The position numbers and the translations under genes were made by a program. This document shows, in pieces, positions 3,428-62,410 of a DNA stretch of 64,000 nt (position 1 is the first letter of the stretch; each line of letters opens with the position of its first letter). This DNA comes from Torpedo marmorata (lineage: Eukaryota): NCBI GenBank assembly GCA_977017645.1, contig OZ360227.1:59210001-59274000 (forward strand). The letters are read 5' to 3'. The notes under the pieces were generated by a model. It was not told the origin of the DNA. It did no database searches and worked only from the letters and a program-made list of their open reading frames with translations.

Positions 3428-3464
3428 AGCCAACGTTTCGGGCTTGAGCCCTTCATCAAGGCAT
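3428..3464 (-). ncRNA. Minimal hammerhead ribozyme motif in the inverted pLTR
   Basis: Reverse complement reads catgcc TTGATGA a GGGC tcaa GCCC GAAACGTT ggc. Confidence 0.65.
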
Positions 3465-13286: not shown

Positions 13287-14988
13287 TTTTTTTAAAAAAT
13301 ATTTTATTTAAAATTTTAAATCACAAAATACATAAAATAAAATATGAAATTATCAAAATATTTGTGATACATTTTCACCCCCCCTCCCTCCCTCCCCACC
13401 CCAACCCTCCCAACCCCACTAATCTAATAAAAATAAAAAATATAAAATAAAAATAGAGAAAGAAAAAAAAAAGAAAAAGATAGAGTAAGGAGAATGCCAA
13501 TCTAAAAAACATACATCTATAAACTAATTACTGTATATTTCGGCGTATAAGTCGACCCTTGAAACCCTCAAAAATGTCTCAAAAAAAGGGGGTCGACTTA
13601 TACGCCAGATATACTTTTGAGACCTTAAAATCAGCTCAAAATCGAGTTCACGCCGATTCGGCGTATAAGTCGACCCCTGAAAACACGATTCGGCGTATAA
13701 GTCGACCCCTGAAAACACGATTCGGCGTATAGGTCGACCCTGGAAGCGCCTCTCCACCGCCGGCGCCGCCTCTCTACGACACCTCCCCACCGCCGGGCGC
13801 CGCCATAAACCACCCAGACATTTTACAATTGTAGAGCCCGAGGTCCCCGCTCCTACCCGGAAGAACGAGCTCCCCACTCCTGCTTGGGAGAATGAGCTCC
13901 CTGCTCCTGCTTGGGAGAACGAGCTCCCCGCTCCTACCCGGGAGAAAGACGTCCCCGCTCCTACCCGGGAGAACGACGTCCCCGCTCCTACTCGGGAGAA
14001 AGACGTCCCCGCTCCTACTCAGGAGAAAGACGTCCCCGCTCCTGCTCGGGAGAAAGACGTCCCCGCTCCTGCTCGGGAGAAAGACGTCACCGCACCTGCT
14101 CAGGAGAAAGACGTCGCCGCACCTGCATCTTCCCGGCCAGAAGCAAAGGTTTTTTAATTGTTTTTTTTTACTTACCGGTACTTGCTTAATTTACAGCTTT
14201 GTTACTTGGCGATTGGGATGTTGTAACAAATTTTGGGTTGTTGCTGGGAGGCCCAGACAGCCTGAAAATTGGGGGTCGACTTATACGCCGGATATACCAT
14301 AAAACCATTAAAATGAGGCTGAAAAAGGGGGGTCGACTTATCTGCCGGTCGACTTATACGCCGAAATATACGGTATATTGTGGAGGTCAGGTATGCCAGT
14401 AGATCCGATACCCAGAGATCTTCAAATCCTTAAACCAACAACTTTCATATATGGGCTCCAAATTTTTAAGAAGAAATTATATTTATTACGTAAATTATAA
14501 GTAATTTTTTCAAGTGGTATACACGAACGAAGTTCTGCATGCCATCTTTCTAATCCTAAATCTAAATCAGATTTCCAAGTAATAGCAATACATTTCTTTG
14601 AAACAGCTAAAGCAATTCGCAAAAATTCTATTTGATACATGTTTAATTTCATCTTAATACTAAATTTTCTAATATCTCCGAACAAAAATATCATAGGATC
14701 CATTGGAAATGTAATCTTAAATACTTTATCTAAAAAATTTTTAACTTTCAACCAAAAATCATAAACTTTTGGACAAAACCATGTAGAATGTACAAAAGAA
14801 CCTTCTTCTTTATTACATCTAAAACATAAACCTGATAATGTCGGATTAAATTTCTTTAGTTTTTTAGGTGTTAAATATAATTGATGAAAAAAGTTATATT
14901 GTACTAATCTATATCTAACATTATTAATCTTCGTCATACTTAATTTACATAATTCTTTCCAGTGATTCTCATCTATTGTTACATTCAA
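13287..14988 (-). mobile_element. 5'-truncated L1-clade LINE inserted in BEL integrase
   Basis: ORF 14422-14988 with C-terminal Cys motif CFRC...H..W.C and LEKITY; poly(T) at 13287; TSD atggcatag[t/a]ct (13275-13286, 14989-15000). Confidence 0.9.
13531..14373. mobile_element. Tc1/mariner Tc2-like MITE with internal minisatellite
   Basis: TIRs c[t/c]gtatatttcggcgtataagtcgacc; TA TSD; about 8 copies of ggcgtataagtcgacc; 24-bp tandem array ~13845-14125. Confidence 0.88.
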
Positions 14989-22950: not shown

Positions 22951-24199
22951 AACTTAGATATCTACAGCACAGTGCAGGCCCTTTGGCCACAGTGTTGTGC
23001 CGACCTAATAACCTATTCTAACATCTGCCTAAAATTTCCCTACTGCATAACCTTCCATTTTCTTCTCTATTCTATTTACCTATCTCTTAAAATATCCTAC
23101 TGTACCTGCCACCACCACCGTTGCTGGCAGTGCATTCCTTGCACCCACCGCTCTCTGTGTGAAGAAATTATCTCTTACATCCCCTCTGTACTTACTCCCA
23201 AGCTCCTTAAAACTATACCCCCTGTTACAAAATCAAACCAGCAACGACAGAGGACGCAATGCAAAAGGGGTAAAATTGCAATTTATATTTATTAAACACA
23301 ATTAAACATATAATTTCACAACAATTAACCCCACTATAAACGTCTATAAACACTATTCTTATCTCAAAGGTGTGTGTGTGTGTAAAGCCCAGACCATTAC
23401 AGTCTGTGCCAAACCCTCATGTAAAAATGTAAAAACTTTCCCAAAAACCCCAGGTCAGTCATAAAAACAAGTCAGTCAAAAAAAATATAATACAGTCCAC
23501 AAAAATTCACTCTCTAAGTTCAGGTTCCAAATTCAGCTCTGTGTGCTGGTAGAAGGACTTTTCAATGAACGTTGGAGAGAGACAATGACTGTTTATGCTT
23601 ACGAATACTTGGCTTGTTTTTCTTCTCTGATGACTTTCCCTTTTGGTAGAGATTCACGAGGATTGCGACTCCAAATCAGTATACCACTGATTGAGGCGTG
23701 TACTTGGATCTTACAGCTGGTCTCACTGATCTCAGGCCTGTTCTCCATAAAAGTTGCTTTAACTCAGGATTTTTCTGAGACAGGAGGCCATGTGCTATTC
23801 TCCCAGCCTTTTTCTCTGGGATGCCCGAGCCTGGATTTTGCTGTGTTCTCCAGCCTTTGCAACTCCAAAACTGCCTGCTTTTTGCAGAGGTCTGCACCTG
23901 CTTTTGCAAAAGTGCATCAAAGTATCTTTTCCACAGCCTGTCTCTCTCTCTCTCTCTGGGTACGCCAAGTTAACTCTTTCAGTACCTGGTCCCAGTGTGC
24001 ACTCCAAAAGACTTCATCCTTCCTGTTGACCGTCCGCAGTCCAAATGGTCAGTCATGGTCCATAACACCTCCCACCCACAAAGAAAATTTTGGTCTGCAT
24101 GAACAAAATTTTGGAAATTAATTGAGGTGTCACAATATAAACAAAATCCACAATATTCATCCACAAATACAAAATATGAACTATTTTCATTGATAAAGT

Positions 24200-25378
24200 T
24201 TAACATCTAGAAAGACAATCAGCAATTACATTATCTTTCCCTTTTATATGAGTGATTACCAAATCATATTCTTGCAAAACTAGACTCCAATTCAACAACC
24301 GTCGATTCTTATTTTTCATTTTACAAAGAAAAACCAATGGATTATGGTCAGTATACACTATGAGTGGTTTTTGAGCTGTACAGATATAAAATTCAAAGTG
24401 TTGTAGAGCCAACACAAGAGCCAACAACTCTTTTTCTATGGTTGAATAATTCCTTTGATGATCATTGAACTTCTTCGAGAAGTAGGATACCGGATGGTCA
24501 ATGTCCTCTTTGTTCTTCTTCTGTAACAGCACCGTGCCCACAGCTTCATCGCTGGCATCCACGGCTAAAGAAACCGGCTGTTCTAAATTAGGTGACTTAA
24601 GCACAGGTTGGTGGCATAACATGGCTTTCAACTTGACAAATGCTTCCTGACAACCTGTCGACCATACAAATTTTTCTTTCTTTCTAAGCAAATTTGTGAG
24701 AGGGAGCGCAAGATTAGCAAAGTTTTTACAGAACTTGCGGTAGTAGCCAATCATTCCCAGGAACCTCCTCAGAGTTTTCTTACCAGTTGGAACAGGGAAC
24801 TCGGAAATAGTCACAACCTTTGCCTCTACTGGCCCCAACTGCCCCTGTCCTACTATATAACCCAGATAAATAACAGTAGCATGTCCAAACTCACTTTTAC
24901 TTAAATTAACTGTGAGATTTGTTTGGACAGTCGTTCGAACAATTGCTTTAGCTCAAAGATATGCTCTTCCCAGGTCTCACTACTTACAATTAAATCATCA
25001 ATGCAAGCACCTGTGTTTTTCAACCCTTGAATTACTGAATTAATCATTCTCTGAAATGATCCTGGAGCATTCTTCATACAAAAAGGCAAAACATTATACT
25101 CATACAGCCCAAAACGTGTTACGAATGCAGAAATCCCCCATACCCTTTTTGTCAAAGGAACACATCTTTCAATAAGTCAATTTTTGTAAGAATTTGGCCT
25201 TCTTCACCTTGTCTATACAATCGTCTATTCCAGGAATAGGATAAGCATCTGTCTTTGTTACAGCATTTACTTTCCTATAATCAGTGCAAAACCTAACCAT
25301 TCCATCAGGCTTAGGCACTAAAACACAAGGGAAACTCCAATTGGAAGTAGACTTTCGAATGATATTGTTCTTTACCAT
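24200..25378 (-). pseudogene. Gmr1-like RT and RNase H (frameshifted)
   Basis: RFCTDYRKVN, NAPGSFQR, CIDD, VDASD, EKELLA, TDH, ADCLSR. Confidence 0.9.
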
Positions 25379-25402
25379 GTAGTCAATTTCCTGATCTACC
25401 AG

Positions 25403-27046
25403 TTAGCACTTTTCCGCATTGATTCGATAGGGATGCTGTTTTATCGGTCTTGCATCTCCTACATCCACATCATGATAAGCGATGGAAATTTTCTGAGGCA
25501 CATCGGGAAATAAATTTATAAATTTTAAAAATAACTGACTCATCTCTTCCTTTTCTGAAGTTTTCAGATGAGCCAACTTTGTCTCCAGATTGTGCAAAAT
25601 CATGGAATTTTCTAACCTCGGGTTTATCAATTTCTGTGTCCTGTGACCCTCTCTGAAACTAGTTTTATCTGTCTCCTGCTCACCCTGATCAATAACCAGC
25701 ACCTCTGGTAAATGTTCAGTCCCTTTTTGCGGCACCTGTTCAAAATATGGCTTAATCATATTCACATGACAGACCTGTGTGTCTCGTCTGCGATTAGGTG
25801 TTTCTATGACATAGGTGACATCATTAATTTTTGACTTAACTCTATAGGGTCCTGAAAATCCAGGCCTAAGAGAATTTGAATGGATGGGAAACAGAACTAA
25901 TACGATCTCACCAGGTTTAAAAGTTCTCATCTTCGCCTTTTGATCACACCAAACCTTCATTCTCTGTTGAGTGGCCTTTAAATTCTCCTTTGCCATCTGA
26001 CAAGCCCTATGCAACCGATCCTTAAATTTGGAAACGTAATCTAACAGATTTAAATGCACATCACTATTAATCCACTGTTCTTTTAATAATCTTAAAGGAC
26101 CTCTCACCTCATGTCCGAAAACTAACTCGAATGGACTAAAACCAAATGATTCTTGGACAGACTCCCTCACTGCAAATAACAACAAATGAACTCCCTCATC
26201 CCAATCCTTTTCCTTTTCACAACAATAGGTTCTAATCATGTTTTTCAAAATCGAATGGAACCTCTCCAAGGCCCCTTGACTTTCTGGATGGAACGCAGAG
26301 GATACAATCTGTTTAACTCCCAGTCCATCAACCACTTGTTGGAAAACGCCTGACATGAAATTACGGCCCTGATCTGATTGAATTTCCCTTGGCAAACCTA
26401 CCAAGGTGAAAAACTTTACTATAGCCTTTACAATTGACTTTGCTTTAATGTTTCTCAGAGGAATGGCCTCTGGAAATCTGGTGGCTGCACGCATAATTGT
26501 TAACAAATACTCATTCCCTGCTTTGGTTTTGGGCAATGGGCCAACACAGTCTACAATCACGCTCGAGAAAGGCTCACTGAAAGCAGGGATAGGTTGCAAG
26601 GGTGCCACCGGGGGACCCTGATTAGGTTTACCCACTACCTGACAAGTGTGACAGGCCCGGCAAAAGCTTACAACCTCCCTTCTCAAACTGGGCCAATAAA
26701 ATTGTTTCATTATCTTCCTTATAGTTTTCTTCACCCCAAGGTGACCACCTAAGGGTGTACTATGAGCCAAAGTTATTATTGCATCCCTATATACTTTAGG
26801 GATCACAACCTGCTGCACTACTGCCCATTCTTCATTGGCAGGAACATCACATGGTCTCCACTTTCTCATCAACACCCCATCTTTTTCATAATAACCCACT
26901 GGCACCTTTTTAATCTCCTCTTCAGAGAGAACCTTATCCCTCACCTCAGCGAGATCAGGATCCTCCTTTTGCCTTGCTATTAGCTCCTGTCGGGATAGTG
27001 ACAAATCTGTGCCTTTAGGTGTCTTATCAGTGGATGGGTGTAACAC
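25403..27046 (-). pseudogene. Gmr1-like integrase (upstream of RT)
   Basis: H..PLGGH...CHTC; VDCVGP, SDQG, GALERFH; GPY motif; bounded by in-frame stops. Confidence 0.9.
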
Positions 27047-27260
27047 AGGAGATTACTCAACCTTTTCCAGGTTTTCTTGATTATCACTGTCTTTTTCTTT
27101 CACCAAGTTATTTTCCACTGCCTTCTCTACAGTGACATTTTTCTTAGACATGGCCCTGGTTATGGCACATGCCGGATAAATATCAAAGTCTTTCTCTGAC
27201 TTATCAATGACTGGCTTAGTGGTCATTCGCACTGCAGGAACTACTTTAACCTTGGCCAAG

Positions 27261-28880
27261 TCATTGCCTAGCAACAGTAAAACTCCTTCTACTGGCAATT
27301 CTGATCTCACTCCTATTATAAACAGGTCCTTCCACCAAGTCTGAGTCTAACACTATTTTGTGCAAAGGAATGGATTCAACATCATCCCCAATTCCTTTAA
27401 TTAAATTTATGTCACCGGTGTCAGTAGCTTCACAAAATTCCAAGACACTATCTAACACAAGTGACTGAGCAGCTCCAGTATCTCTCAAGATTTTCACTGG
27501 AACTTGTTTTGATCCTGCCTTAACTGAAACAAAACCATCAGTCACAAAAGCTTTAAATACATCTCTAACTTTGTCAGTAAATTTATCTCCTTCCTGGGTG
27601 TTATGCCTCTTCTCACTCTGAATACAAGCATTAGGTGTTGCATCCTTTTCTCTCTTCTTTTTCAACACTGGACAACTTGCTAGCATATGACCAGCCTTCC
27701 TACAGTAGTGGCAAATGGGACCCGAAGGGTTTTCCCTTTTCCACTTTCCTTCATCCCTTTCCTTAACACTACTTCCAAATTTACTTTCCACTTGCTTGGG
27801 ATTATCCACAGTGACCTTTTGGAAAATTCTACCTGATGTCCACTTAGGCTTGTGGGTTAAAGCATATTCATCTGCTAACTTAGCTGAATTTTGCCAAGTT
27901 TTCACCTCCTTTTCATCTAAGTATGCCTTAATATCCTCAGGAACACACTTTTTTATCTCCACGATTGTTATCAATTCTCTCAATTGATTGTAATCATTGT
28001 TTACCGCATTAGATGTGCACCACCGGTCAAAACACACAACCTTTTCATAGGCAAACTCTGTGTAAGAATGGGTTGCTGATCTTTTTAAATTTCTAAACTT
28101 CTGTCTATAAGCCTCTGGAACTAACTCATAAGCCTGGAGTATAGCCTTTTTCACCGTTTCATAATCAGCAGCTTGCTCCGTGGTAAGAGTAGAATAAGCT
28201 TGCTGAGCTTTTCCTTTTATTACACTTTGTAACATAAGAGACCATTGGACTTGTGGCCATTTTAATTTCACAGCCACCTTCTCAAAATGTTGGAAGTACT
28301 TATCTATTTCTGCCTCCTCAAATGGAGGAACCAACCTAACTTCTCTACTAGCCAAAAACCCCTCAACTGGATGACAAATTTGATGTTGGTGCTCTTCTTG
28401 TCTCCCCTCATTTTCCAACTTTATCTTTTCCAGCACATATATCCTATTTTTATCCTCGTTCTCTAAGTCTAATCTCTTTTGTTCCAATTCCGTGTTTAAT
28501 TTCTTTTGTTCCAGTTCCAATTTCTTTTGTTCCAATTCCGTGTCTAATTTCTTTTGTTCCCTGGCTGCCTCCAATTTTAATTTTTTTTGTTCCCTGGCTG
28601 CCTCCAATTCCAATTTCTTTATTTCCAACTGTATGTTTTCAGAAGGTTTACCCTTGGGAAACTGCTCTAACACGCTCTCCTCAAATTTATTTTCTTTTAT
28701 ATAGTATTTGACAATTTTTCTCCCAATCTTTGCCTTTTTCATAGATGATTTTACAGAAGCAATGCCCAATCCTGTTGCTATAGCCACTAACTGTTCCTTT
28801 TTCGCATTTTTTAAAGTATCAGGTACAGGTGATTCCAAAAAATGTTCTACATCCATTGTTGCTGGTTTTTCGTTACACAC
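27261..28880 (-). CDS. Gmr1-like gag (coiled coil, SCAN-like capsid, CCHC knuckle) + protease
   Basis: YETVKKAILQAYELVPEAYRQKFR; CHYCRKAGHMLASC; LRDTGA; frameshift near 27320. Confidence 0.88.
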   Translation of the reverse strand: MCNEKPATMDVEHFLESPVPDTLKNAKKEQLVAIATGLGIASVKSSMKKAKIGRKIVKYYIKENKFEESVLEQFPKGKPSENIQLEIKKLELEAAREQKKLKLEAAREQKKLDTELEQKKLELEQKKLNTELEQKRLDLENEDKNRIYVLEKIKLENEGRQEEHQHQICHPVEGFLASREVRLVPPFEEAEIDKYFQHFEKVAVKLKWPQVQWSLMLQSVIKGKAQQAYSTLTTEQAADYETVKKAILQAYELVPEAYRQKFRNLKRSATHSYTEFAYEKVVCFDRWCTSNAVNNDYNQLRELITIVEIKKCVPEDIKAYLDEKEVKTWQNSAKLADEYALTHKPKWTSGRIFQKVTVDNPKQVESKFGSSVKERDEGKWKRENPSGPICHYCRKAGHMLASCPVLKKKREKDATPNACIQSEKRHNTQEGDKFTDKVRDVFKAFVTDGFVSVKAGSKQVPVKILRDTGAAQSLVLDSVLEFCEATDTGDINLIKGIGDDVESIPLHKIVLDSDLVEGPVYNRSEIRIASRRSFTVARQ

Positions 28881-28966
28881 ACACTAGCTTTTAATTAGCT
28901 TTACAAAAGGAATGTCTTAAACCAAACTGGGATTCCTTCAATTACCAAGATGGATTTTTAATTCAA

Positions 28967-28985
28967 ATCCAAGGACGAGCCCCCA
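28967..28985 (-). promoter_or_regulatory. Primer-binding site, tRNA-Pro
   Basis: tgggggctcgtcc(tt)ggat just inside the 5' LTR matches the tRNA-Pro PBS TGGGGGCTCGTCCGGGAT over the first 13 nt. Confidence 0.85.
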
Positions 28986-31359
28986 ATTTTGTTACAAAAT
29001 CAAACCAGCAACGACAGAAGACGCAATGCAAAAGGGGTAAAATTGAAATTTATATTTATTAAAGAAAATTAAACATATAATTTCACAACAATTAACCCCA
29101 CTATAAACGTCTATAAACACTATTCTTATCTCAAAGGTATGTGTGTGTGTATAAAGCCCAGACCATTACAGTCTGTGCCCAACCGTCATGTAAAAATGGA
29201 AAAACTTTCCCCAAAAACCCCAGGTCAGTCATAAAAACAAGTCAGTCAAAAAAAATATAATACAGTCCACAAAAATTCACTCTCTAAGTTCAGGTTCCAA
29301 ATTCAGCTCTGTGTGCTGGTAGAAGGACTTTTCAATGAACGTTGGAGAGAGACAATGACTGTTTATGCTTACGAATACTTGGCTTGTTTTTCTTCTCTGA
29401 TGACTTTCCCTTTTGGTAGAGATTCACGAGGATTGCGACTCCAAATCAGTATACCACTGATTGAGGCGTGTACTTGGATCTCACAGCTGGTCTCGCTGAT
29501 CTCACGCCTGTTCTCCACAAAAGTTGCTTTAACTCAGGATTTTTCTGAGACAGGAGGCCATGTGCTATTCTCCCAGCCTTTTTCTCTGGGATGCACGAGC
29601 CTGGATTTTGCTGTGTTCTCCAGCCTTTGCAACTCCAAAACTGCCTGCTTTTTGCAGAGGTCTGCACCTGCTTTTGCAAAAGTGCAACAAAGTATCTTTT
29701 CCACAGCCTGTCTCTCTCTCTCTGCTCTCTCTCTCTCTCTCTCTGGGTACACCTAATCCTGGGCAAGTTAACTTTTTCAGTACCTGGTCCCAATGTGTAC
29801 TCCAAAAGACTTCATCCTTCCTGCTGACCTTCCGCAGTCCAAATGGTCAGTCATGGTCCATAACACCCCTCATATTAGCCATTTCAGCCCTGGGAAAAAG
29901 CCTCTGGCCATCCACACGATTAATGCCGGTCATCATCTTATACACCTCTATCAGGTCACCCCTCATTCACCATCACTCTAAGGAGAAAGACCAAGTTTAC
30001 GCACCCAAGTTCACTCAACAGACCTCCTCGTGGCAGGGATAGATGATGTACAGGAAGCACCACGAACTGGTGGGAAAAGGAAAGGGGAGGTCCGTTGTCT
30101 GATGTGATTAATATAGGCGAACACTGCCATTATAGAAAATGATGTGTCACTTGCATTTGCATGGAACGTGTTGTTTTTTCTGTATGTCTGGATGTGGGTG
30201 GATGAGTGAGTGAGGGTACAAGTGCTTTTGTATGTGGAGAGCCAGTCGTGTCTGGGTGTGTGGTGTGTGTTTCTGCACCTTGTGTTTATAACGTGATCCT
30301 ATTAAACAGCAGAATTGTGTCTGCTTCTCAAACGATGTCACATCGTGCGCAAACTGTCTATGACACTCCAGTTGCAGAAAGTTGTAAATATTGATCGTAC
30401 ACTTTGTATCCTGTCTTGCAAATTATCTCTCTTGCATCTCAGTATGAAAACAGAGATTTTAAAAAAGAAGCACGTTCCTTAATTAATCACAAACAGTAAC
30501 TTTATTTCATTTGATACTGAGTTGGTTAAAACTCTAAACATAATTGCTCTGTCTTTTTTATATTTTCACAAACAGTTTGCTCAATGGTCCGTAACACTCA
30601 AAAATTATTAAGTCCCCTTCCTATTTTTTAACTTAATACATATGTATTTTTTCTTAAAATTGCCTCTTAAAACATTCCCACATTTAGAGCTGTAATATAA
30701 TTTTATTAACACTTGAACCCATCATATTTGTGATACTTGAATTCTCCTCAAAAATAGGAATATCAGATTTCCGATCTTGCCAAAACTAAAGCCAAATCTG
30801 CATTATTGTCATTGTGTTCCAACTTAAGTTATAAATGGTACTAAATCTTCAGAATAATTCTGAACAGTTTGCAAATTCACATACTGTACCTACCTCAACT
30901 CAAACTCTTTTATTTTATAAAGAATGTTATTCTTTTGTCCCCAGTGAATTCAGGAAAAATTCCACAGCCATTTTACAGTATTTTTATTTTTATTTAATGG
31001 CCCCATCCTGGTTGTCTCACATTCTTACAAATATTGTCTCACGATTGATTTCAGATCAGGTCCCTGGGCCAAGAAGTTGGATAGTGTCTTCTTTTCACAC
31101 TGTAAACTTGAACTGTGCACAGTACTAATTCCTGGTCAGATCTCATGCAAAAGTGCACAAAATCGGTCACAAATTATTTAAAAGCAGAAGTTGTGGCAGT
31201 TTGCATATGAAATCAAGACCTGGTTTATTCCAATGAGGAATTGCACAAACATCTTCCAGCTGCCGAATTATTCCTGTGCTTCTCGTTAGTAGGAACACTT
31301 CACAGAAGAAGATGCTCAGAACCTGCCGGATATATTCAATGAACTAGCATCTAATGAAA

Positions 31360-32645: not shown

Positions 32646-32720
32646 AATGGAATAGCTGGAGTAACTAAGTATTGATAAAAAAGAGTAGTACAAGTTTCAG
32701 AGGCTTGGAGGATGTAGGTT

Positions 32721-35700
32721 TGTGGTAAACCACTGTATATGTATTGTGGGCTGGTGATAGGTTTGGACATGCCCTGCTGACTGTCCCGGTGGCTCCTCCC
32801 CCTACCCCCTTGAATAAAGGCCATTGTGCCACAACTCCTCCCCCAGTCCGGGACAGATCATCAGCACGAATGTAGGTCCATTCTGTAGTTAATAAAAGCC
32901 TTTCAGTTCTAGTGCAACTTCCAGTCTTTTGGAGTTATTGATGGGCGTATCAATTTTATTAACTACATTTTGAAATGGAGAGCGTTCTGAGACCCGATAA
33001 ACTGGACATCGACCCGCAGGCATCGGACGCCAGTAACGCCTTCGAACTCTGGCTAGTCTGCTTTGAGTCATTTCTACGGGCGATCAAAGTGCAGGACGAA
33101 GAAGGAAAACGCATGGTCCTCCTCTCTAGGGTAAGCCCTCGAGTTTACTCAATGATCCGCGACTTGCAGACCTACGAGGAGGCGATGGAAGCACTGAAAC
33201 GGCAGTATATACAGCCTGTGAACTCGGTATACGCGAGGCACAGGCTAACGACGCGGCAGCAGCGGCCCGGGGAGTCGATCGCGGAGTTCGTACGGGCCAT
33301 ACAGACACTCGTGCGGGCGTGCGACTGCAGGGCGCTGACAGCCGAGCAGCATGCAGAGTTGCTGGGGAGAGACACTTTTGTAACGGGGATCAGGTCAGTG
33401 TACGTGCGCCAGCGACTGCTGGAGCATGCTGACCTGACCTTCCGTTCGGCCATGGAACTGGCCCACACGCTGGAGGCCGCGCTTCAGAACGCGGACGCTA
33501 TTCAAGCGCGCGATCTCCAGCAGGCCCCGTGGATGCCACCGACCCCCCACCCTGCTAGCGACCCGAATACTGCCGCCATCAGCCGCGAGCCCGAGAAATG
33601 TTATTTCTGCGGGCTCGAGAAGCACCCCCGAAAACGTTGCCCGGCCCGCGAAGCGACCTGCTCCAGCTGTGGTAAAAAAGGCCACTTTGCGAAGGCGTGC
33701 CGCTCAAAGCCACGAGCGGGGTCGAGCAGAGCCGCGTGCGAGATTCGGGGGTGGCCATCTTATGCACCGTCACTTCCGGCGCCGCCGTCCTACCTACCCA
33801 CCACTGCCAACACGTGCGAAGAATGGGGGCAGCCATCTTGGACCTCGTCACTTCCAGCGCCGCCATCTTACCGACCCGACGCTTCACTTCCAGCGCCGCC
33901 ATCTTACTGCCTCGACGCCAACACGTGCGACCCATGGGGGCGGCCATCTTCTTCCACTCCAGCGAGCCGACACAGGGTGCTACCCCGGGACAGCGGGCAC
34001 TCCATCGCGACGTCGGATCAAGACAATGACCTAACACTGGCGTCAGTGACACTCGACCAGAGCGCACCCCATCAACTATCGAGGTCAATGATGGACATTC
34101 TGGTCGAGGGACACAGGACAAACTGCCTGTTCGACACAGGCAGCACTGAGAGCTTTATCCACCCTGACACAGTGCAGCGATGTGGCCTCGTGACACTGCC
34201 GGTAAGCCAAACGGTTGCCATGGCTTCCGGGTCACACACAACAGATATCCGGGGGGGTTGTGTGGCGACGATAGTAGTACAGGGCACGCAATACCGGGAC
34301 TTCACACTATTGGTCATGCCCCGACTGTGTGCACCTGTACTACTGGGCCTCGATTTCCAGAGCCACCTCCAGAGTGTTACCATGAAATATGACGGGCCCC
34401 TCCCACCGATTACCGTCAGTAACCACCAGTTCCTCAGAAACACACGCCACACTACCTGCGGTCTAGCCACCATCAAGATCCCGCCCCCGTCGCTATTCGC
34501 CAACCTGACCTCTGACTGTAAACCTGTGGCGACCAAAAGCAGGAGATATAGCGCAGGGGACAGAGCGTTCATCAAGTCAGAGGTGAGGCGACAACTCGGG
34601 GAGGGGATCATTGAACCGAGCACGAGTCCCTGGAGGGCCCAGGTGGTCGTCGTGAAGAACGGGAACAAAAATAGGATGGTGGTGGATTACAGCCAGACCA
34701 TCAATAGGTTCACGCACCTCGACGCGTACCCCATGCCACCCATTGCGGATATGGTTAACCAGATAGCGCAATATAAGCTCTTCTCAACCATAGACCTCAA
34801 ATCCGCCTACAACCAGCTCCCCATCCGCCGAGAGGACCGCCCTTACACCGCCTTTGAGGCGGACGGCAGGCTCTACCATTTCCTGCGCGTCCCCTTTGGG
34901 GTTACAAATGGGGTATCCGTCTTCCAGAGGGAGATGGACAGGATGGTGGACCAGCACAATCTAAAAGCCACCTTCCCGTACCTGGACAATATCACTATCT
35001 GTGGTCACGATCGCCAGGACCACGACAACAACCTCCGGAAGTTCCTCCAGGCGGCCAAAGCACTTAATCTCACCTACAACAAGGATAAGTGCGTGTTCGG
35101 GACCACCCGACTCGCTATCCTGGGGTGTGTCATGGAGAACGGGGTCATCGGCCCCGACCCCGACCGCATGCGCCCCCTGTTGGAACTACCGCTTCCCCAC
35201 ACCCTCAAAGCCCTCAAAAGGTGCTTGGGCTTCTTTTCGTACTACGCCCAGTGGGTCCCTAATTATGCAGACAAGGCCCGCCCCCTAGTCAAGTCCACCA
35301 CTTTTCCCCTTGCAGCGGAGGCACGTGAGGCTTTCAGCCTCATAAAAGGGGACATTGCCAGAGCAGCAATGCACGCGGTGGACGAGTCCATCCCCTTCCA
35401 AGTCGAGAGTGACGCGTCCGACTTCGCACTGGCTGCTACCCTCAACCAGGCGGGAAGACCGGTGGCGTTCTTCTCCCATACCCTTCAAGGCCCAGAAATT
35501 CGGCACTCCACGGTGGAGAAAGAGGCCCAAGCCATAGTGGAAGCTATCAGGCACTGGAGGCACTATCTCACCGGCAAAAGCTTTACCCTGCTGACTGACC
35601 AGCGCTCAGTCGCATTTATGTTCAACAACCAGCAGCGGGGTAAAATCAAAAACGACAAAATCCTGAGGTGGATTATTGAACTCTCCTCCTTCAACTACGA

Positions 35701-37174
35701 TATCATGTACCGGCCCGGGAAGCTCAATGAGCCCTCCGATGCTCTATCCCGGGGGACGTGCGCTAGCGCACAGATCGACCGGTTATATGCCCTCCACTGC
35801 GATCTCTGCCACCCCGGAGTTACCAGGCTGTTTCACTTTGTGAAGGCCCGTAATCTACCGTACTCCCTAGAAGAAGTCAGGGTGATGACCAGCAGCTGCC
35901 AGGTCTGCGCGGAGTGCAAACCGCACTTCTACCGCCCTGACAGGGCACAGTTAGTTAAGGCGACCCGCCCTTTCGAGCGACTCAGCGTCGACTTCAAGGG
36001 CCCCCTCCCCTCCACCGACCGCAACGTGTACTTTCTCAACGTTATTGACGAGTACTCGTGGTTTCCTTTCGCCATCCCCTGCCCCGATACCTCGGCCACC
36101 TCTGTCATAAGAGCTTTCCGCAAGCTCTTCACCCTGTTCGGTTTCCCCTGCTACATCTATAGTGACCAGGGGTCCGCTTTCATGAGCGACGAGCTGAGAC
36201 AATATCTGCTGGCAAAGGGGATCGCCACTAGCAGGACCACGAGTTACAATCCTCGGGGTAACGGCCAGGTGGAAAGAGAGAACGCCACGGTCTGGAAGGC
36301 CACTCTCTTAGCACTTAGGTCTAAGGGACTACCAGTCTCCCGCTGGCAAGAAGTCCTTCCCGAGGCCCTCCATTCCATCCAGTCCCTGCTATGTACGTCC
36401 ACCAACGTGATTCCTCATGAGAGACTCTTTTCTTTCCCCAGGAAGTCGACCACCGGGACGACCCTACCAGCATGGCTGACGTCCCCAGGGCCAGTGCTGC
36501 TCCACAAACATATCAGGAGCAGTAAATACGCCCCAATGGTCGAGAGGGTCCAGTTAGCCCACGCCAACCCCCAGTACGCCTACGTGGTCTTCCCTGATGG
36601 GCGGGAAGACACCGTCTCCATCCGGGACCTGGCGCCCGCAGGAGCACCGGAACCCGCCCCTGAACACCCCCTTGTTACAATTACCCCCATGCAGACACAA
36701 GACGCACCATTCGATCCCGCCACGACACCACAATCACCAGCACTTTCGCCGTCACCCGGCGTTCCGGTACCCCAAACCAGGCAGGAGGTGGCTCCGCCGC
36801 CTGCCCCATCACCACAAGTACTGCGCTGATCACGACGTCAGACTCGACCGCCTGATCGACTTGATCTATGACTGTAAAATATTTTAGATGTGTTGTAGTG
36901 TTCACTTCACCCCGCTGGACTCTTTTAAAAGGAGGGGTGAATGTGGTAAACCACTGTATATGTATTGTGGGCTGGTGATAGGTTTGGACATGCCCAGCTG
37001 ACTGTCCCGGTGGCTCCTCCCCCTACCCCCCTTGAATAAAGGCCATTGTGCCACAACTCCTCCCCCAGTCCGGGACAGATCACCAGCACGAATGTAGGTC
37101 CATTCTGTAGTTAATAAAAGCCTTTCAGTTCTAGTGCAAATTCCAGTCTTTTGGAGTTATTGATGGGCGTATCA
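32721..37174 (+). mobile_element. Compact single-ORF Gypsy LTR retrotransposon (Mag-like), young and near-intact
   Basis: ~232-bp LTRs (32721-32952, 36942-37174) with about 4 differences; TSD aggtt; PPT aaaaggaggggtgaa; inserted in a CR1 3' fragment. Confidence 0.97.
32975..36829 (+). CDS. Gag-Pol polyprotein (2 Zn knuckles, PR, RT, RNase H, integrase)
   Basis: CYFC..H..C and CSSCGKKGHFAKAC; FDTGS; IDLKSAY, PFG, YLDN; SDASD, EKEA, TDQ, SDALS; HHCC, SVDFKG, SDQG, VERE. The stop is probably premature (family end RRSxRxTRPPDRLDL at ~36870). Confidence 0.96.
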   Translation: MESVLRPDKLDIDPQASDASNAFELWLVCFESFLRAIKVQDEEGKRMVLLSRVSPRVYSMIRDLQTYEEAMEALKRQYIQPVNSVYARHRLTTRQQRPGESIAEFVRAIQTLVRACDCRALTAEQHAELLGRDTFVTGIRSVYVRQRLLEHADLTFRSAMELAHTLEAALQNADAIQARDLQQAPWMPPTPHPASDPNTAAISREPEKCYFCGLEKHPRKRCPAREATCSSCGKKGHFAKACRSKPRAGSSRAACEIRGWPSYAPSLPAPPSYLPTTANTCEEWGQPSWTSSLPAPPSYRPDASLPAPPSYCLDANTCDPWGRPSSSTPASRHRVLPRDSGHSIATSDQDNDLTLASVTLDQSAPHQLSRSMMDILVEGHRTNCLFDTGSTESFIHPDTVQRCGLVTLPVSQTVAMASGSHTTDIRGGCVATIVVQGTQYRDFTLLVMPRLCAPVLLGLDFQSHLQSVTMKYDGPLPPITVSNHQFLRNTRHTTCGLATIKIPPPSLFANLTSDCKPVATKSRRYSAGDRAFIKSEVRRQLGEGIIEPSTSPWRAQVVVVKNGNKNRMVVDYSQTINRFTHLDAYPMPPIADMVNQIAQYKLFSTIDLKSAYNQLPIRREDRPYTAFEADGRLYHFLRVPFGVTNGVSVFQREMDRMVDQHNLKATFPYLDNITICGHDRQDHDNNLRKFLQAAKALNLTYNKDKCVFGTTRLAILGCVMENGVIGPDPDRMRPLLELPLPHTLKALKRCLGFFSYYAQWVPNYADKARPLVKSTTFPLAAEAREAFSLIKGDIARAAMHAVDESIPFQVESDASDFALAATLNQAGRPVAFFSHTLQGPEIRHSTVEKEAQAIVEAIRHWRHYLTGKSFTLLTDQRSVAFMFNNQQRGKIKNDKILRWIIELSSFNYDIMYRPGKLNEPSDALSRGTCASAQIDRLYALHCDLCHPGVTRLFHFVKARNLPYSLEEVRVMTSSCQVCAECKPHFYRPDRAQLVKATRPFERLSVDFKGPLPSTDRNVYFLNVIDEYSWFPFAIPCPDTSATSVIRAFRKLFTLFGFPCYIYSDQGSAFMSDELRQYLLAKGIATSRTTSYNPRGNGQVERENATVWKATLLALRSKGLPVSRWQEVLPEALHSIQSLLCTSTNVIPHERLFSFPRKSTTGTTLPAWLTSPGPVLLHKHIRSSKYAPMVERVQLAHANPQYAYVVFPDGREDTVSIRDLAPAGAPEPAPEHPLVTITPMQTQDAPFDPATTPQSPALSPSPGVPVPQTRQEVAPPPAPSPQVLR

Positions 37175-37599
37175 AGGTTTTGAGGAGAAACTAGATGGGC
37201 TGGGATTGTTTACCCTGGAGTGCAGGAGACTCAGGGATGATCTGAGAGAGGTTTATAAAATCATGAGGGGCATAGATAGGGAGATAGTCAGGGTCTTTTT
37301 TCCAAGAATAGGAGACTTTAAAATTAGAGGTGAGAGGGGAAATACTTAGAGGATTTGAGATGGTTGGTGGGTATATGGAATGAATTTCCAGAGGAGGTCA
37401 TAAAGGCAGGTACGATTCTAACTTTTAAAAGACACTTGGACAGGTTCATGGATAGAATGGATTTAGAGTGATGTGGGTCAAATAAAAGCAAAAGGTAATG
37501 GTGTGGATAGGTATCTTTGTTGGTGTGAATGAGCTAGCCTGTTTTCATACAGTGTAACTCTGCAAATCTATGAATTCCTAAGCACTTGATTTATTACTT

Positions 37600-39489: not shown

Positions 39490-41053
39490 AGTGAGATAGT
39501 GAGATAGCCTGTGATATCTGTCTCTGAGGGCGACGTCAGAACATCATTCAAGAGGGTGAACCCTCGCAAGGCGTCAGGCCCTGACGGCGTACCTGGCAGG
39601 GTATTGAAAATCTGCGCCAACCAACTAGCCGGAGTGTTCACGGACATTTTCAACCTCTCATTGCGGCAGTCAGAGGTTCCCACCTGCTTCAAAAGGGCAT
39701 CAATCATCCCGGTGCCCAAGAAGAGTAGTGTGAGCTGCCTCAACGACTATCGCCCAGTAGCACTAACTTCTACGGTGATGAAATGTTTTGAGAGGCTGGT
39801 CATGGCCAGAATTAACACATACCTAAGCAAAGATCTGGACCCACTCCAATTCGCCTATCGTCACAATCGCTCCACAGCAGATGCAATATCGCTGGCTCTC
39901 CACTCAGCTCTGGATCACCTCGAAAACAGCAATTCATACATACGGCTGCTCTTCATAGACTACAGCTCGGCCTTCAATACCATTATTCCCTCAGTGCTGG
40001 TCAAGAAGCTACAAACTCTAGGCCTCTGTACCCCACTCTGCAACTGGATCCTTGACTTTCTCATCGGAAGACCACAATCAGTACGAATTGGAAACAACGT
40101 CTCCTCCTCACTGATTATCAACACAGGCGCACCCCAAGGATGTGTGCTTAGCCCACTGCTCTACTCGCTATACACTCATGACTGTGAGGCCAGGCACAAT
40201 TCCAATGCCATATACAAGTTTGCCGATGACACCACAGTTGTCGGCAGAATCACAAACGGCAATGAGGAAGCGTACAGGAGGGAGATAGATCAGCTCATTG
40301 AATGGTGTAATGACAACAACCTCGAGCTCAACGTCAGTAAAACCAAGGAGATGATTGTGGACTTCAGGAGGAAGTCAGGGGAACACAACCCAGTCCTCAT
40401 CGAGGGCTCAGTCGTGGAGAGGGTCAAGAACTTCAAATTCCTGGGTGTCAACATCTCCGAGGATCTGTCCTGGAGCATCCACGTGGATGCAATCACAAAG
40501 AAGGCTCGTCAGCGGCTATACTTTGTGAGGCGATTGCGGAGATTCGGTATGTCGCCAAAGACTCTTGTGAACTTCTACAGGTGTACCGTGGAGAGCATTC
40601 TAGCTGGTTGCATCACTGCCTGGTATGGTGGTGCCAACTCCCAGGACAAGTGCAAACTCCAGAAGGTTGTTACCTCGGCTTGTGACATCACGGGCACCAA
40701 ACTTCACTCCATCGAGGACATATACATGAGGCGATGTCTTAATAAAGCAGCCTCTATCCTCAAGGACCCCCACCACCCAGGCCATGCCCTCTTCACGCTG
40801 CTTCCATCGGGGAAAAGGTACAGGAGCCTAAAGACGAGCACTCAACGGCACAAGGTCAGCTTCTTCCCCGCTGCCATCAGATTCCTGAACAATCAATGAA
40901 CCAAAGACACTAGTGCACTATTGTTTATAATTTTTATATAGTAATGTCGTTAGAATGGTTAATATGAATGTTAATTGCACTATGATGCTGCCGCAAAGCA
41001 CCGAATTTCATGACTTGTTCATGACAATAAATTCTGATTCTGATTCTGATTCT
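39490..41053 (+). mobile_element. Rex1/Babar-type LINE, 5'-truncated, with open RT ORF 39511-40899
   Basis: [44 protein letters not shown]; AATAAA followed by (attctg)n tail. Confidence 0.92.
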
Positions 41054-52293: not shown

Positions 52294-53278
52294 CCGTATA
52301 TTTTGGCGTATAAGTTGACTCGCTGATAAGTCGACCCCCCCTTTTCAGCCTCATTTTAATGGTTTTATTGTATATCCGGCATATAAGTCGACCCCCAATT
52401 TTCGGGCTGTCCGGGCCTCCCAACAACAACCCAAAATTTGTTACAACACCCCAATCGCCAAGTAACAAAGCTGTAAATTAAGCAAGTTAAAAAAAAAAAC
52501 AGTAAAAAAAACTTTTGCTTCTGGCCTGGAAGATGCCAAACGGAGCTGGGTCCAAGTCTTCAGCTTCGGCTGCAGCCAGAGTCGGCGACGGGCGACTCCA
52601 TTCTCCACATCGGGTGTGGTGCTGTCCTCATGGAAGAAGTCGCCTCGCTGCCCAAGTGTGCTCGGTGCAGGAACCACGGTACGTGTCGGCTCCCGAGCAG
52701 GTGCGGGGACTCGTTCTCCCGAGCAGGTGCGGGGACATCGTTCTCCCGAGCAGGTGCGGGGACATCGTTCTCCCGAGCAGGTGCGGGGACTCGTTCTCCC
52801 GAGCAGGAGCGGCGACCTCGTTCTCCCGGGCAGGAGCAGGGACCTCGTTCTCCCCGGCATGTGCGACGACTTCGTTCTTTCGGCAGGTCAGGAACGGACT
52901 CGGACTACGTGGCAGGAGCGGGAACCTCACCCTACCGGCCAGGAGCCTCGGCTTACCGGGCAGGAGCGGCGACCTCGTTCTCCCGGGTAGGAGCGGGGAC
53001 CTCGGGCTCTACAATTGTAGAATGTCTGGGTGGTTTATGGCGGCGCCGGCGGTGGGGAGGTGCTTCCAGCGTCGACCTATACGCCGAATCAGTTTTTTAT
53101 GGGTCGACTTATACGCCGAATCGGGTTTTCAAGGGTCGACTTATACACCGAATTGGCGTGGAGTAGTTTTTGAACTGAGTTTAAGGTCTCAAAAGTATAT
53201 CCGGCGTATAATTCGACCCCAGTTTTTTGAGAGATTTTTGAGGGTTTCAAGACTCGACTTATACGCCGAAATATACGG
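52294..53278. mobile_element. Tc2-like MITE, second copy (inverted relative to 13531-14373)
   Basis: Same TIRs, TA TSD, subterminal repeats and 24-bp minisatellite (~52690-53000). Confidence 0.88.
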
Positions 53279-53316: not shown

Positions 53317-56300
53317 TGTGGTAAAACACTGTGTATAGGTTGTGGCTGGGTGATAGGTCTGGACATGCCCTCTGCTGACTGTTCCTGTGGGTCCTCCCAC
53401 AGACCCCCTGAATAAAGGCGATTGTGCCACTGCTCCTCCCCCAGTCCAGGACAGATAACCAGCATGGAGGTGACTCCGTTCTATTGCTAATAAAAGACTT
53501 TCAGTTCAAGTACAACTTCTAGTCTTTTGAAGTTATTGATGGGCTCATCAATTTTATTAGCAATATTTTAAGCATGGAAAACGTCCTGAGTCCCGACAAA
53601 CTAAACCTCGATCCGCAAACGCCAGAGGCCGGCAACGCTTTCGAACTCTGGCTAGCCTGCATCGAGTCATTCCTGGAGGAAATCAAGGTGCACGAAGACG
53701 CTTCAAAACGCAAATTCCTCCTCTCTGGGGTCAGCCCATGGGTGTACTCGATGATCCGAGACCTGCAGACCTACGAAGACACAATGAACGCCGTCAAAAG
53801 ACAGTCTATACGGCCAGTAAATACCGTATACGCGCGACATCGGTTAGCGACGCGGCAGCAGCGGCCCGGTGAGTCGAGCACTGAGTTCGTCCGGGCCCTA
53901 CAAACACTCATGCGAGCCTGCGATTGCCAGGGACTGATGCCCGGAGAACACACAGAGCTCCTGGTAAGAGACGCATTCGTCACTGGGACCAGGTCGGTGT
54001 ATGTGCGCCAGCGCCTGCTGGAACAAGCCGATCTCACCTTACGCTCGGCAATAGAGCTGGCTGATACGTTGGAAGCCGCGCTGCAGAACTCTGACGCTAT
54101 CCAGGCACGCGATCTTTTGCCGGCTCCGTGGATACCGCAGACCCCGCACCATGCCAGAAAATCGACCACAGCTGCCGCCAGTTGCGAGTCCGAGAAGTGC
54201 AACTTCTGCGGACTCGAAAATCACCCCCGGATACGCTCCCGGCCCAAGAGATGACCTGCGCCAGCTGCGGGAAGAAAGGCCACTCCGCCAAGGTCTGTAA
54301 GTCCATACTGCGAGCGGGATCGAACAGCGCTGCGTGTGAGGCATGGGGGTTGCCATTGTTGCCGTCGCCATCTTGCCCGTCCGCTGCCACCATGTGCGAG
54401 ACATGGGGGTGGCCATCTTGTTTGTCGTCATGTCCGTCGCCGCCATCTTACACATACGCGGCCAACACGTGCGAGTCATGGGAGCGGCCATCTTGTTCGC
54501 CACCTTCTTGCCAACACCCACGACCCACGGGTGCCGCCATCCCGGAACACCAGGCATTCCATCGCGTCGGATCAAGAGAGTGACTCAACTTTGGTATCTG
54601 TTACCCTCGACCAAAGTGCACCCCACCAACTCGCGAGGTCTATGATGGACATTCTGGTGGAGGGACACAGGACAAGCTGCCTTTTTGACACCGACAACAC
54701 GGAGAGCTTCATCCATGGTGCAGTGCTGCAGACTCACGACACAGCCGGTAAGCCAGAGGGTCGCCGTGGCTTCCGGGTCGCACACAACAGACATCCATGG
54801 GGGTTGTGTAGTGACGCTAGTGGTGCAGGACACTGAATACCGGGACTTTACACTACTGGTCATGCCTCAACTGTGTGCCCCTGTGCTACTGTGGCTCGAT
54901 TTCCAGAGCCACCTTCAAAGCGTGATGATGGAGTATGACGGGCCCCTTCCACCAATTACTGTCGGTAACCATCAATTTCTCAGACATACCAGACATATCC
55001 CGCCACATCACATGCGCAGCCGCATCACAGACACTACTTGCGGCCTATCCAACCTCAAGATCCATCCCCCAACGCTGTTCGCCAACCTGACCCCTGACTG
55101 TAAACCTGTGGCAACCAAAAGCAGGAGAAACAGCGCGGGGGACAGGGCCTTCATTAAGTCTGAGGTGCAGCGGTTGCTCAGGGAAGGGATCATTGAGGCG
55201 AGCACAAGTCCCTGGAGGGCCCAGGTGGTTGTCATTAAAAACGGGGAGAAAAATAGGATGGTGGTAAATTATAGCCAGACCGTCAATAGATTCAAGCAGA
55301 TCGACGTGTACCCTCTACCACGCATCGTGGATATGGTGAACCAGATAGCTCAGTACAAGCTATACTCCACGATAGACCTTAAATCCACCTACCATCATCT
55401 CTCCATCCACCGAGGCGGATTGCAGGCTCTATCACTTCCTGCGCGTCCCCTTCGGGGTCACAAATGGGGTATCCGTCTTCCAGAGGAAGATGGAGAGGAT
55501 GGTGGACCAGTGCCAATTAAAGGCCACATTCCCATACCTGGACAATATTACCATCTGTGGTCACGACCGGCAGGACCATGACAAAAATCTCCGGAAGTTT
55601 CTCTAGGTGGCCAAACATTCAACCTCACTGATAACAAGGATAAGTGCGTGTTCGGAACCGCCCGACTCGCTATCCTGGGGTGCGTCATGGAGAACGGAGT
55701 CATCGGCCCCGAACCCGACCAAACGCACCCCCTGCTGGAACAACCGCTCCATCACACCCTCAGAGCCCTCAAAAGGTGCTTGGGCTTCTTTTCATATTGC
55801 GCCCAACGGGTCCCTAATTATGCGGACAAGGCCCGCCCCCCCAGTAAAGTCCACCACTTTTCCTCTCAGCTGAGGCACGCGCGGCCTTCAGCCTCATCAA
55901 AGAGGACATTGCCAGAGCAGCAATGCACGCGGTGGACGAGTCCACTCCCTTCCAAGTAGAGAGCGACGTGTCTGACTTCACACTGGGTGCTATCCTCAAC
56001 CAGGCGGGAAGACCGGTGGCATTCTTCTCCCGTACCCTTCAAGGCCCAGAAATTCTGCACTCAGCGGTGGAGAAAGAGGCCCAGGCCATAGTGGAAACTA
56101 TCAGGAACTGGAGGCACTATCTTGCCGGCAAAAGGTTTACCCGGCTGACTGACCAGCGCTCAGTTGCATTTATGTTCAGCAATCAACAGCAGGGTAAAAT
56201 CAAAAATGATAAAATCTTGAGGTGGAGAATCGAACTCTCCACCTACAACTATGATATCATGTACCGGCCCGGGAAGCTCAACGAGCCCTCCTATGCCCTA

Positions 56301-57733
56301 TCCCGGGGACGTGCGCCAGCGCGCAGATGGACTGGTTATATGCCCTCCACTGCAAGCTTTGCCACCCCAGGGTCACCCGGCTTTTCCACTTTGTGAAAGC
56401 CCGTAACCTGCCATACTCCCTTGAAGAGGTCAGGACGATGACCGGGGACTGCCAAGTCTGCGCGGAGTGCAAACCGCACTTCTACCGACCCGAAAAGGCA
56501 CAGTTGATCAAAGCTACCCGCCCCTTTGAGCGTTGACTTTAAGGGCCCCCTCCCTTCTACCGATCACAATGTGTACTTTCTTAACGTCATTGACGAGTAC
56601 TCGCGGTTCCCTTTCGCCATTCTCTGCCCCGATACCACGACCACTTCAGTCATAAAAGCCCTCCGCAAACTCTTCACATTGTTTAGATAACCCTGCTATA
56701 TCCATAGTGACCGAGGGTCCTCGTTTATGAGTGACGAGCTACACCAATACCTGCTGGCCAGGGGTATCGCGACTAGCAGGACCACGAGCTATAACCCCTG
56801 GGGGAATGGACAGGTGGAGAGGGAGAACGCCACGGTCTGGAAGGCCACACTTTTAGCCCTCAGGTTTAAGGGACTACCAGTCTCCCGCTGGCAGGAAGTC
56901 CTTCCCGAGGCACTCCACTCCATCCACTCCCTGCTCTGCACATCCACCAATGCCACCCCTCATGAGAGACTCTTTTCCTTCCCCAGGAAGTTGACCACCG
57001 GGACTACCTTACCAGCATGGCTGACATCCTCAGGGCCAGTGCTGCTCCAGAAACATGTCAGGAGCAATAAATACGCCCCGATGGTCGAGAGGTTTCACCT
57101 ACTACACGTGAACCTCCAGTACGCCTACGTGGTTTTTCCTGATGAGCGGGAAGACACGGTCTCCATCCGGGACCTGGCGCCTGCAGGAGAACTGGGGACC
57201 GCCCCCGAACACTCCATGGTTACTGTTACCCTCGCACCAACCGCTAGGTACACACAGGAGACACCACTCAATTCAAACCCGACGCAGACACCAAACGAGA
57301 TCCCCATTCCGGCCACAGCATACACACACGAGGTTTTGCCGACGCCAGACGTGCTGGTACCTCCAATCAGGCAGGAGGCAGCACCGTCGCCTGTCCCATC
57401 ACCACAAGTGCTGCGCCGATCACAGCGGCGGACTCGACCACCTGATCGACTCGACCTGTAAATATACTAATTTGTTATTTATTTTTGTAAATATGGTTAC
57501 ATCCTTCACCCTGCGGGACTCTTTTAAAAGGAGAGGTGAATGTGGTAAACCACTGTATATAGGTTGTGGCTGGGTGAGATATCTGGACATGCCCTCTGCT
57601 GACTGTTCCTGTGGCTCCTCCCACAGACCCCCTGAATAAAGGCGATTGTGCCACTGCTCCTCCCCCAGTCCAGGACACATTACCAGCATGGATGTGACTC
57701 CATTCTTTTGCTGATAAAAGCCTTTCAGTTCTA
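53317..57733 (+). mobile_element. Compact Gypsy element, decayed second copy
   Basis: 5' LTR 53317-53550; truncated 3' LTR from 57541; frameshifted gag-pol (53574-57461) collinear with 32975-36829. Confidence 0.95.
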
Positions 57734-57829
57734 CTCCTGGGCCTGTCTTCTGTTCCCTGTTACCACATTACCACAATCCACATCCCTCTTTACTGGTTAT
57801 AGTCCTCATTATTGTTTCCCCTACAACAG

Positions 57830-62099: not shown

Positions 62100-62410
62100 A
62101 GCTGTGTGCTCAGCCCGCTCCTGTTCACACCACTGACTCATGACTGCAACACCAGATTCAGCTCCAACAGTCATCAAGTTTGCAAATGACACAACAGTAG
62201 TTGGCCTCATCAGCAACAATGATGAGTCGAACTACAGAGAAGAGATGGAAAATCTCATGAAATGGTGTGAGAATAACAACCTGAATCTCAACGTGGACAT
62301 GACGAAGGAAATAATTGTGGACTTCAGGAGGACCAGAGATGACCACCCTCCACTACACATTAATAGCTCAGTAGTGCAGAGAGTAGAGAGCACCAAGTTC
62401 CTTGGTGCTC
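62100..62410 (+). mobile_element. Rex1-type RT fragment
   Basis: IKFANDTTVVGLI...WCENNNL.LNV..TKE. Confidence 0.8.

Follow-up and report, generated by a model that had tools for sequence, protein, structure and literature searches.

Retrotransposons of the E1 clade, a group of animal Gypsy elements, probably prime minus-strand DNA synthesis with an RNA segment of their own LTR, a self-priming strategy similar to that of Tf1, instead of using a tRNA. An LTR segment, here called the arm, pairs with the sequence that occupies the primer-binding site (PBS) position, the paired stretch begins one base past the LTR end, its two strands covary, and the arrangement is spread across a deep animal clade. 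Since the polarity is the same as in Tf1 and a conserved junction falls exactly at the 3' end of the arm, the same chemistry is the likely one.

E1 occupies positions 32721-37174 of the window, i.e. the whole 64,000-nucleotide stretch of Torpedo marmorata DNA that was analysed, and has the features of a Ty3/gypsy element: TG...CA LTRs (232 bp the 5' one and 233 bp the 3' one, with 4 differences), a 5-bp target-site duplication (TSD), a polypurine tract (PPT) and the domain order gag-PR-RT-RH-IN. The best PDB sequence matches are Ty3-type RT chains; rays and sharks supply the best named homologues, followed by an anemone and a nematode, and many more are found on contigs of about 4 kb. The RT active site is YLDN instead of YXDD (34995-35006); in the 21 relative loci checked for this motif, the DN form is present in 14, YLDD in 4 and no motif in 3. 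No Chromo or SH3_Tf2-1 match was obtained, with E values up to 0.05, in any of 16 proteins (E1 and 15 relatives), and E1 can be considered a non-chromovirus, as first proposed, when judged by domain content. An Atlas search with Gag gave matches to generic Gag/zinc-knuckle clusters only, Rfam gave no match, and no relatives were found in the viral contigs searched; a sigma-70 promoter scan was also empty, which is irrelevant to a eukaryote. The double zinc knuckle resembles that of Mag Gag. The Mag lineage of Gypsy, as described in PMC6238403 and PMC3601003, comprises the A, B and C clades and is characterized by short LTRs and animal hosts, both of which are also found for E1; by these general features E1 may be Mag-like. 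The searchable supplements of PMC6238403 contain no match for YLDN. A second, diverged subfamily is represented in the window by E2. The arm in its 3' LTR (57703-57760) is like that of another subfamily, and unrelated sequence cuts the LTR off soon after.

Table 1. Coordinates of E1 and E2 features in the window
Feature	Position	Strand	Basis	Details
Target-site duplication, left copy	32716..32720	+		5 bp; right copy at 37175-37179
E1 5' LTR, TG...CA	32721..32952	+		232 bp; 4 differences from the 3' LTR
AATAAA-containing upstream motif, possible TATA-like box	32812..32820	+	predicted	nearly invariant in host copies
Initiator-like motif	32843..32849	+	sequence; predicted	predicted start site A 32845 (model B, internal primer)
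Conserved 6-mer at the 5' boundary of the arm	32878..32883	+	host copies	initiator-like; alternative predicted start region (model A)
LTR arm, candidate self-primer	32884..32897	+		14 nt; 3' end 32897; AATAAA 32891-32896 inside
RCC motif directly 3' of the arm	32898..32900	+		predicted cut side (AAA|RCC); RCC in 16/20 families
U5 hairpin 1	32916..32936	+		6 bp; conserved, without two-sided change
U5 hairpin 2	32938..32953	+	conservation in host copies	6 bp; takes in terminal CA and spacer A; U5-IR-like
PBS position	32954..32967	+	sequence	exact complement of the E1 LTR arm, without TGG
Single gag-pol ORF	32975..36829	+		1284 aa; two Cys/His knuckles, protease, RT (YLDN), RNase H, integrase; no chromodomain
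Polypurine tract ahead of the 3' LTR	36927..36941	+	sequence	
E1 3' LTR	36942..37174	+		second arm copy 37106-37119
E2 5' LTR	53317..53550	+	sequence	diverged subfamily
E2 LTR arm	53482..53495	+	sequence	
E2 PBS position	53552..53565	+	sequence	exact complement of the E2 arm
E2 3' LTR	57541..57733	+		homology ends shortly past the arm; E2 reading frame fragmented

The E1 LTR ends with CA (32951-32952), which is followed by a single spacer A (32953) and then by 14 bases that are the exact complement of the arm; the ATG that opens the gag-pol ORF is located 7 nt downstream of the helix. The initial annotation had placed both halves of the pairing in E1 and E2 (Table 1), and all of its coordinates proved exact, and the TGG that it had found missing past the E1 5' LTR is indeed absent, in E2 as well; the three compensatory pairs it had reported between the two elements were also recovered, the E2 arm differing from that of E1 at positions 2, 4 and 6, each with a matching change on the other strand. 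When the E1 LTR was shuffled 100,000 times, perfect complements to the post-LTR bases reached 12 nt at most, compared with 14 observed. The window contains 15 inverted repeats of at least 13 nt within 120 nt; as such repeats are this frequent, what makes the arm/PBS pairing significant is that it lies one base from the LTR edge and is conserved. Of the small hairpins described in U5 both exist, although a 6-bp stem with one U-G/U-A pair describes the first more accurately; they are 95-98.5% paired in 47 distinct host copies, among which hairpin 1 displays no two-sided change and hairpin 2 only one, in 2 copies.

The complementarity is conserved, with compensation, both among the copies in the host genome and in more distant relatives, which is what a survey of covariation across the family had been proposed to test. 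Among 74 distinct close copies, a perfect helix of at least 14 bp is kept in 40 of 44 of E1 type and in 22 of 30 of E2 type. Further host subfamilies, each with its own arm and a matching PBS, were recovered when the Gag N-termini of two relatives served as queries. Over 143 host copies and 14 pairs, 1950 of 2002 cells are Watson-Crick, 13 are G-U, 37 are mismatches and 2 are gaps. In the 47 distinct copies, which derive from 49 picked out of the 143 with up to five per PBS type, two-sided changes are found in 7 of the 14 pairs; the percentage of pairing and the covariation score of the real helix were reached by 0 of 500 shuffles, while the number of pairs with a two-sided change was equalled in 56 of 500, and control alignments obtained by sliding were only 32-50% paired. 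For the E1 family, 487 junctions match the E1 junction pattern and 102 match the pattern with an A-to-G variant in the PBS. In 162 E1 copies, namely those with a readable junction, which are about 2% apart and were deliberately enriched for this variant, the combination of arm position 7 and PBS position 8 is C/G in 82, T/A in 68, T/G in 7, C/A in 2 and other in 3. Another host family of this clade, more diverged (L178:992-1108, minus strand), has its own arm and PBS, an ATTAAA-type hexamer and a few extra pairs past a short bulge.

The same data bear on the proposal that a host RNA, such as a tRNA half, a tRNA fragment or another small RNA, is the primer and the match to the LTR is secondary, which is highly improbable. 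Priming by half-tRNAs does exist in copia lineages (PMC6317226, PMC10886601). However, the PBS lacks TGG, and a single genome carries at least 7 recurring PBS variants, each of which tracks the arm of its own LTR. The longest match of the PBS to host tRNAs is 6 nt within mature-length sequences, in an incomplete and small sample of 33 genes of 9 anticodon types, which leaves some room for a host primer; 7-nt matches derived from one spurious long tRNA prediction. The many PBS forms in one genome, each following its own LTR, are a stronger argument against a tRNA than the tRNA screen. A neighbouring Gypsy element, on the minus strand of the window at 23223-29492, which carries a SCAN domain, an integrase whose C-terminus is of p58 type and LTRs that are about 97-98% alike, has an ordinary TGG primer site 4 nt past its LTR; it also speaks against host-RNA priming of E1 and is a useful internal control. 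We take this second element to be Gmr1-like and its primer site to be tRNA-Pro-like.

Relatives of E1 were collected as 88 loci from metagenome and MAG contigs, 31 of which, having a Gag start and upstream DNA, entered the pairing test. In 29 of the 31 the pairing of the LTR with the first 14 post-LTR bases surpasses that of all 300 LTR shuffles, the two exceptions being L106, matched by 4 of 300 shuffles, and L164, matched by 48 of 300. The LTR end was fixed independently by the 3' LTR, exactly or within 2 nt, in 13 relative loci, and in 9 of the 31 the best-pairing candidate was taken as the junction. Automatic choice of the junction went wrong in L001, L238 and L164, which all scored at background, and in L106 it fell on another copy of the repeat. 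Upon re-reading of 19 loci, complements of 12 bp in L100, 14 bp in L157 and 11 bp in L106 were found, and L152, L160 and L154 joined the pairing test; most of the others were truncated, rearranged or without a match. Only 1 of 420 cells is a G-U pair when L164 is omitted. The relatives are 51-63% identical to E1 in RT-RH, where at least 186 residues could be aligned, and 44-94% identical to one another, with a median of 56%; the letters of their arms are unrelated to those of the E1 arm, and nonetheless the helix is kept. The succession of CA, one spacer base and helix is common to the window copies and the relatives, in agreement with the primer geometry first recognized in E1, with the 3' end of the arm pointing into U5 one nt from the LTR edge. 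Some retrotransposons (L226-L233) lie on contigs filed as bacterial MAGs, where contamination from an animal host is the most likely origin.

Template switching is able to perfect inverted repeats, and the repeat could be functionless and be kept perfect by such switching at the DNA level or by gene conversion; the frequent differences between LTR pairs at polymorphic sites, a sign of exchange between copies, agree with this. Nevertheless, position, polarity and AAA|RCC context are kept in families with only 44-94% identity in RT-RH, and the element would still need a primer, making a functionless repeat extremely improbable.

The junction at the arm end was surveyed in 20 families, one representative each and E1 included; the RTs of three of them are 88-94% alike. 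AAA forms the end of the arm in 19 families, and RCC follows the arm in 16; a stem starting at the first base past the arm is found in 12, compared with 3.9 expected. On the other side, the base just past the PBS helix (32968 in the window, and its equivalents) is polymorphic in all three host families, being T/G, T/A/G and T/C, while the base after it is T in 113 of 113 cases; this variable base is suggestive, and only that, of a non-templated addition or of run-off at a discrete primer end. In host copies, the conserved motif that precedes the arm (32877-32882) may form a short helix with the start-codon region (32974-32979). As a general feature this second helix was rejected: it folds in E1 and fits some host subfamilies, and no general counterpart was recognized by eye in the relatives.

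In 10 of the 20 families the arm ends in AATAAA or ATTAAA, with one-off variants of the hexamer in most others. The initial annotation had interpreted the pairing as a self-primer, as a switch silencing the 5' poly(A) site, or as both; the self-priming geometry and its compensation have found support, whereas the switch is not needed, the canonical hexamer being present in 10 of 20 families only. In HIV-1 the 5' poly(A) hexamer is hidden in a helix, the poly(A) hairpin, a further helix joins U5 and the AUG, and a separate tRNA PBS is kept. E1 resembles HIV-1 in that AAUAAA is covered at the 5' end only and in that bases close to the start codon may be paired in host copies, and differs from it in that the partner strand is the PBS position itself. 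A helix acting mainly as a poly(A) switch, which would hide the hexamer in the 5' LTR transcript and leave priming to something else, would fit the frequency of the hexamer and its variants at the arm end, a PBS partner that adjoins the 5' copy only, and pairs 8-14, those of the hexamer, which have no internal-branch change in host copies. We regard it as quite unlikely: it leaves the element without a primer site, half of the families (10 of 20) have no canonical hexamer in the arm, and in L091 and L096, where the arm end is non-canonical, a canonical hexamer is unpaired in the loop; moreover, G-U pairs should be tolerable in a purely structural helix, which would not have to begin one base past the LTR. 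In the host lineage, masking of the poly(A) site may come as a by-product.

Self-priming has been described in detail for Tf1 of S. pombe, in which RNase H cuts between bases 11 and 12 and the first 11 bases then act as the primer (PMC7175516), and whose priming structure consists of three duplexes, named "pretzel" (PMC10085805). According to PMC7175516, PMC10085805, PMC4600332 and PMC11042837, Tf1/Tf2, Tj1, Tosmo1-3, Tcry1 and the Tf1/sushi group have, like E1, a PBS directly past the 5' LTR, complementary to the LTR, and no tRNA site; a U5-IR-like hairpin and the Ty3/gypsy domain order are further likenesses, and the stem that begins at the arm end in 12 of 20 families may recall the "pretzel". 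Conversely, the E1 clade differs from Tf1/sushi elements in the absence of a chromodomain, in the two Cys/His knuckles of Gag and in the YLDN of RT. The helix is 11-19 bp in the E1 clade, 14 in E1, versus 11 reported for Tf1; the E1-clade arm, unlike that of Tf1, has a poly(A)-like hexamer at its end and RCC behind it, and the AUG comes almost directly after the PBS. In the E1 clade the stem beside the helix is a hairpin local to the LTR, while the two side duplexes described for Tf1 pair PBS-adjacent sequence with the LTR. Comparators of sushi type were sought with PF24626; the 2 of 20 loci that were scanned had Integrase_p58_C, and this comparison was dropped. Self-priming has also been predicted for Tcn1 chromoviruses and for TAR (Houba/Osr-1) copia elements, the criterion being a complementarity to the LTR of at least 10 bp that starts 0-5 bp past it (PMC6317226). 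By the same criterion, the E1 clade has at least 10 bp of complementarity between LTR and post-LTR sequence, conserved with compensation; Tcn1 and TAR differ in having plant or fungal hosts and chromovirus or copia proteins, the E1 clade being a chromodomain-less animal Gypsy. The comparison supports well that the E1 clade would add a case of this kind to the known self-priming signature. No description of self-priming in the E1 clade was found in the literature searched; Repbase and GyDB entries and subscription papers (e.g. Butler et al. 2001) were outside that search and may note it.

If the E1 clade works like Tf1, the arm in the 5' LTR would fold onto the PBS and the RNase H of the element would cut at AAA|RCC, probably aided by the stem that begins right there; the freed 3'-OH at the arm end would then prime synthesis into U5. 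Plus-strand strong-stop DNA would subsequently copy the primer, so that the PBS may take over a change in the LTR arm with no further mutation; such copying from primer to PBS would explain the quick turnover of the helix with almost no G-U pairs. For Tf1, about half of the cDNA keeps a single-stranded PBS copy and the primer is copied into the cDNA end (PMC11042837), while Ty1 and Ty3 reportedly do not copy their primer into the PBS (PMC7472051).

Re-copying of the PBS from the primer is likely in the E1 clade, a reading that follows from the near absence of G-U pairs, from the rapid change of arm positions 1-7 on branches shared with the PBS and from the match to the 5' arm at position 7. 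In the 143 host copies, arm positions 1-7 have 1.86 internal-branch changes per site, compared with an LTR average of 0.79, and 9 of 13 arm changes fall on the same branch as a PBS change; this speed is not unique to the 7-nt arm window, since it is equalled in 21 of 226 LTR windows. In copies whose two LTRs have different bases at arm position 7, the PBS matches the 5' LTR in 16 cases and the 3' LTR in 3 (p=0.004; p=0.013 when tested against a general 3' bias). In a later batch, fetched after the idea arose, the figures are 7 versus 3 (p=0.34), and at the other arm positions the relation is reversed, with 9 matches to the 5' LTR and 17 to the 3' LTR; the bias at position 7 is also open to explanation by gene conversion. 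In 128 E1-type copies with both LTRs, these often differ at family-polymorphic sites (e.g. LTR positions 81, 141, 170 and 223) in spite of intact TSDs, suggesting intermolecular plus-strand transfer or conversion.

The match of the PBS to one or the other LTR also concerns the origin of the primer, since the 3' arm copy might be used: the RNA would circularise, the tail past the arm would be trimmed and the RNA 3' end would prime. As the arm is located at the predicted poly(A) signal, its 3' copy is near the RNA 3' end; but cleavage and polyadenylation take place 10-30 nt downstream of the hexamer, so extra trimming would be required, and the primer would also be the acceptor of strand transfer and would probably be degraded before being copied. 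The PBS moreover follows the 5' arm more often where the LTRs differ, in the proportion given above for position 7, which is suggestive. No precedent was found in the literature searched, and priming by the 3' copy is very unlikely.

For priming by the 5' copy, the position of the arm within the transcript has to be considered. A start at A 32845, about 40 nt upstream of the arm as first proposed, is plausible from the sequence motifs: this predicted site is about 32 nt past the TATA-like motif, and the TATA-like and initiator motifs are conserved and stand 23 nt apart in 138 of 139 host copies. The 23-nt spacing does not discriminate, since the next interval is also almost fixed. In the invertebrate-type relatives no TATA is found at a fixed distance, and initiator-like motifs at the helix start are not enriched (12 of 20 families versus 10.2 expected). 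A Tf1-type model, with the arm at the very 5' end of the transcript, has roughly an even chance; it is favoured by the sharp boundary of the helix after the conserved 6-mer in host copies, by the variable base past the PBS and by small LTRs, in which the arm lies close to the LTR start (67 nt away in L129). The model with the arm as an internal R segment, about 40 nt into the transcript, is somewhat less likely. As for RNA evidence, two contig-only runs cover the element with uninformative ends, and a contig that starts at 32877 is given no weight.

A more comprehensive scenario, which we consider doubtful, is that an ancient animal Gypsy clade outside the chromoviruses evolved self-priming with an internal R primer ending at the poly(A) signal, cut at AAA|RCC and copied back at each cycle, the same helix serving to prime, masking the 5' poly(A) site and adjoining the start codon; if this were true, primer and PBS would co-evolve by templating. 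Self-priming in the E1 clade, which is widespread and high in copy number, would also imply that tRNA-independent priming is commoner than its status as a hallmark of Tf1/sushi elements suggests, and that it probably arose more than once. Self-primed elements would likely evade control by 3' tRNA fragments and would be missed by LTR annotation based on the PBS. The conserved AAA|RCC offers a precise site that can be tested, and the natural variants let one ask whether the PBS derives from the primer.

Other features of the window include two related RT ORFs at 3420-5456 and 62367-63863, the first with a weak GIY-YIG match, which we assume to be Penelope-like; a non-LTR-type RT followed by an ALKBH8_N Pfam match (39508-40899); and arrays of tandem repeats of about 27 nt at 13807-14157 and 52690-53006.
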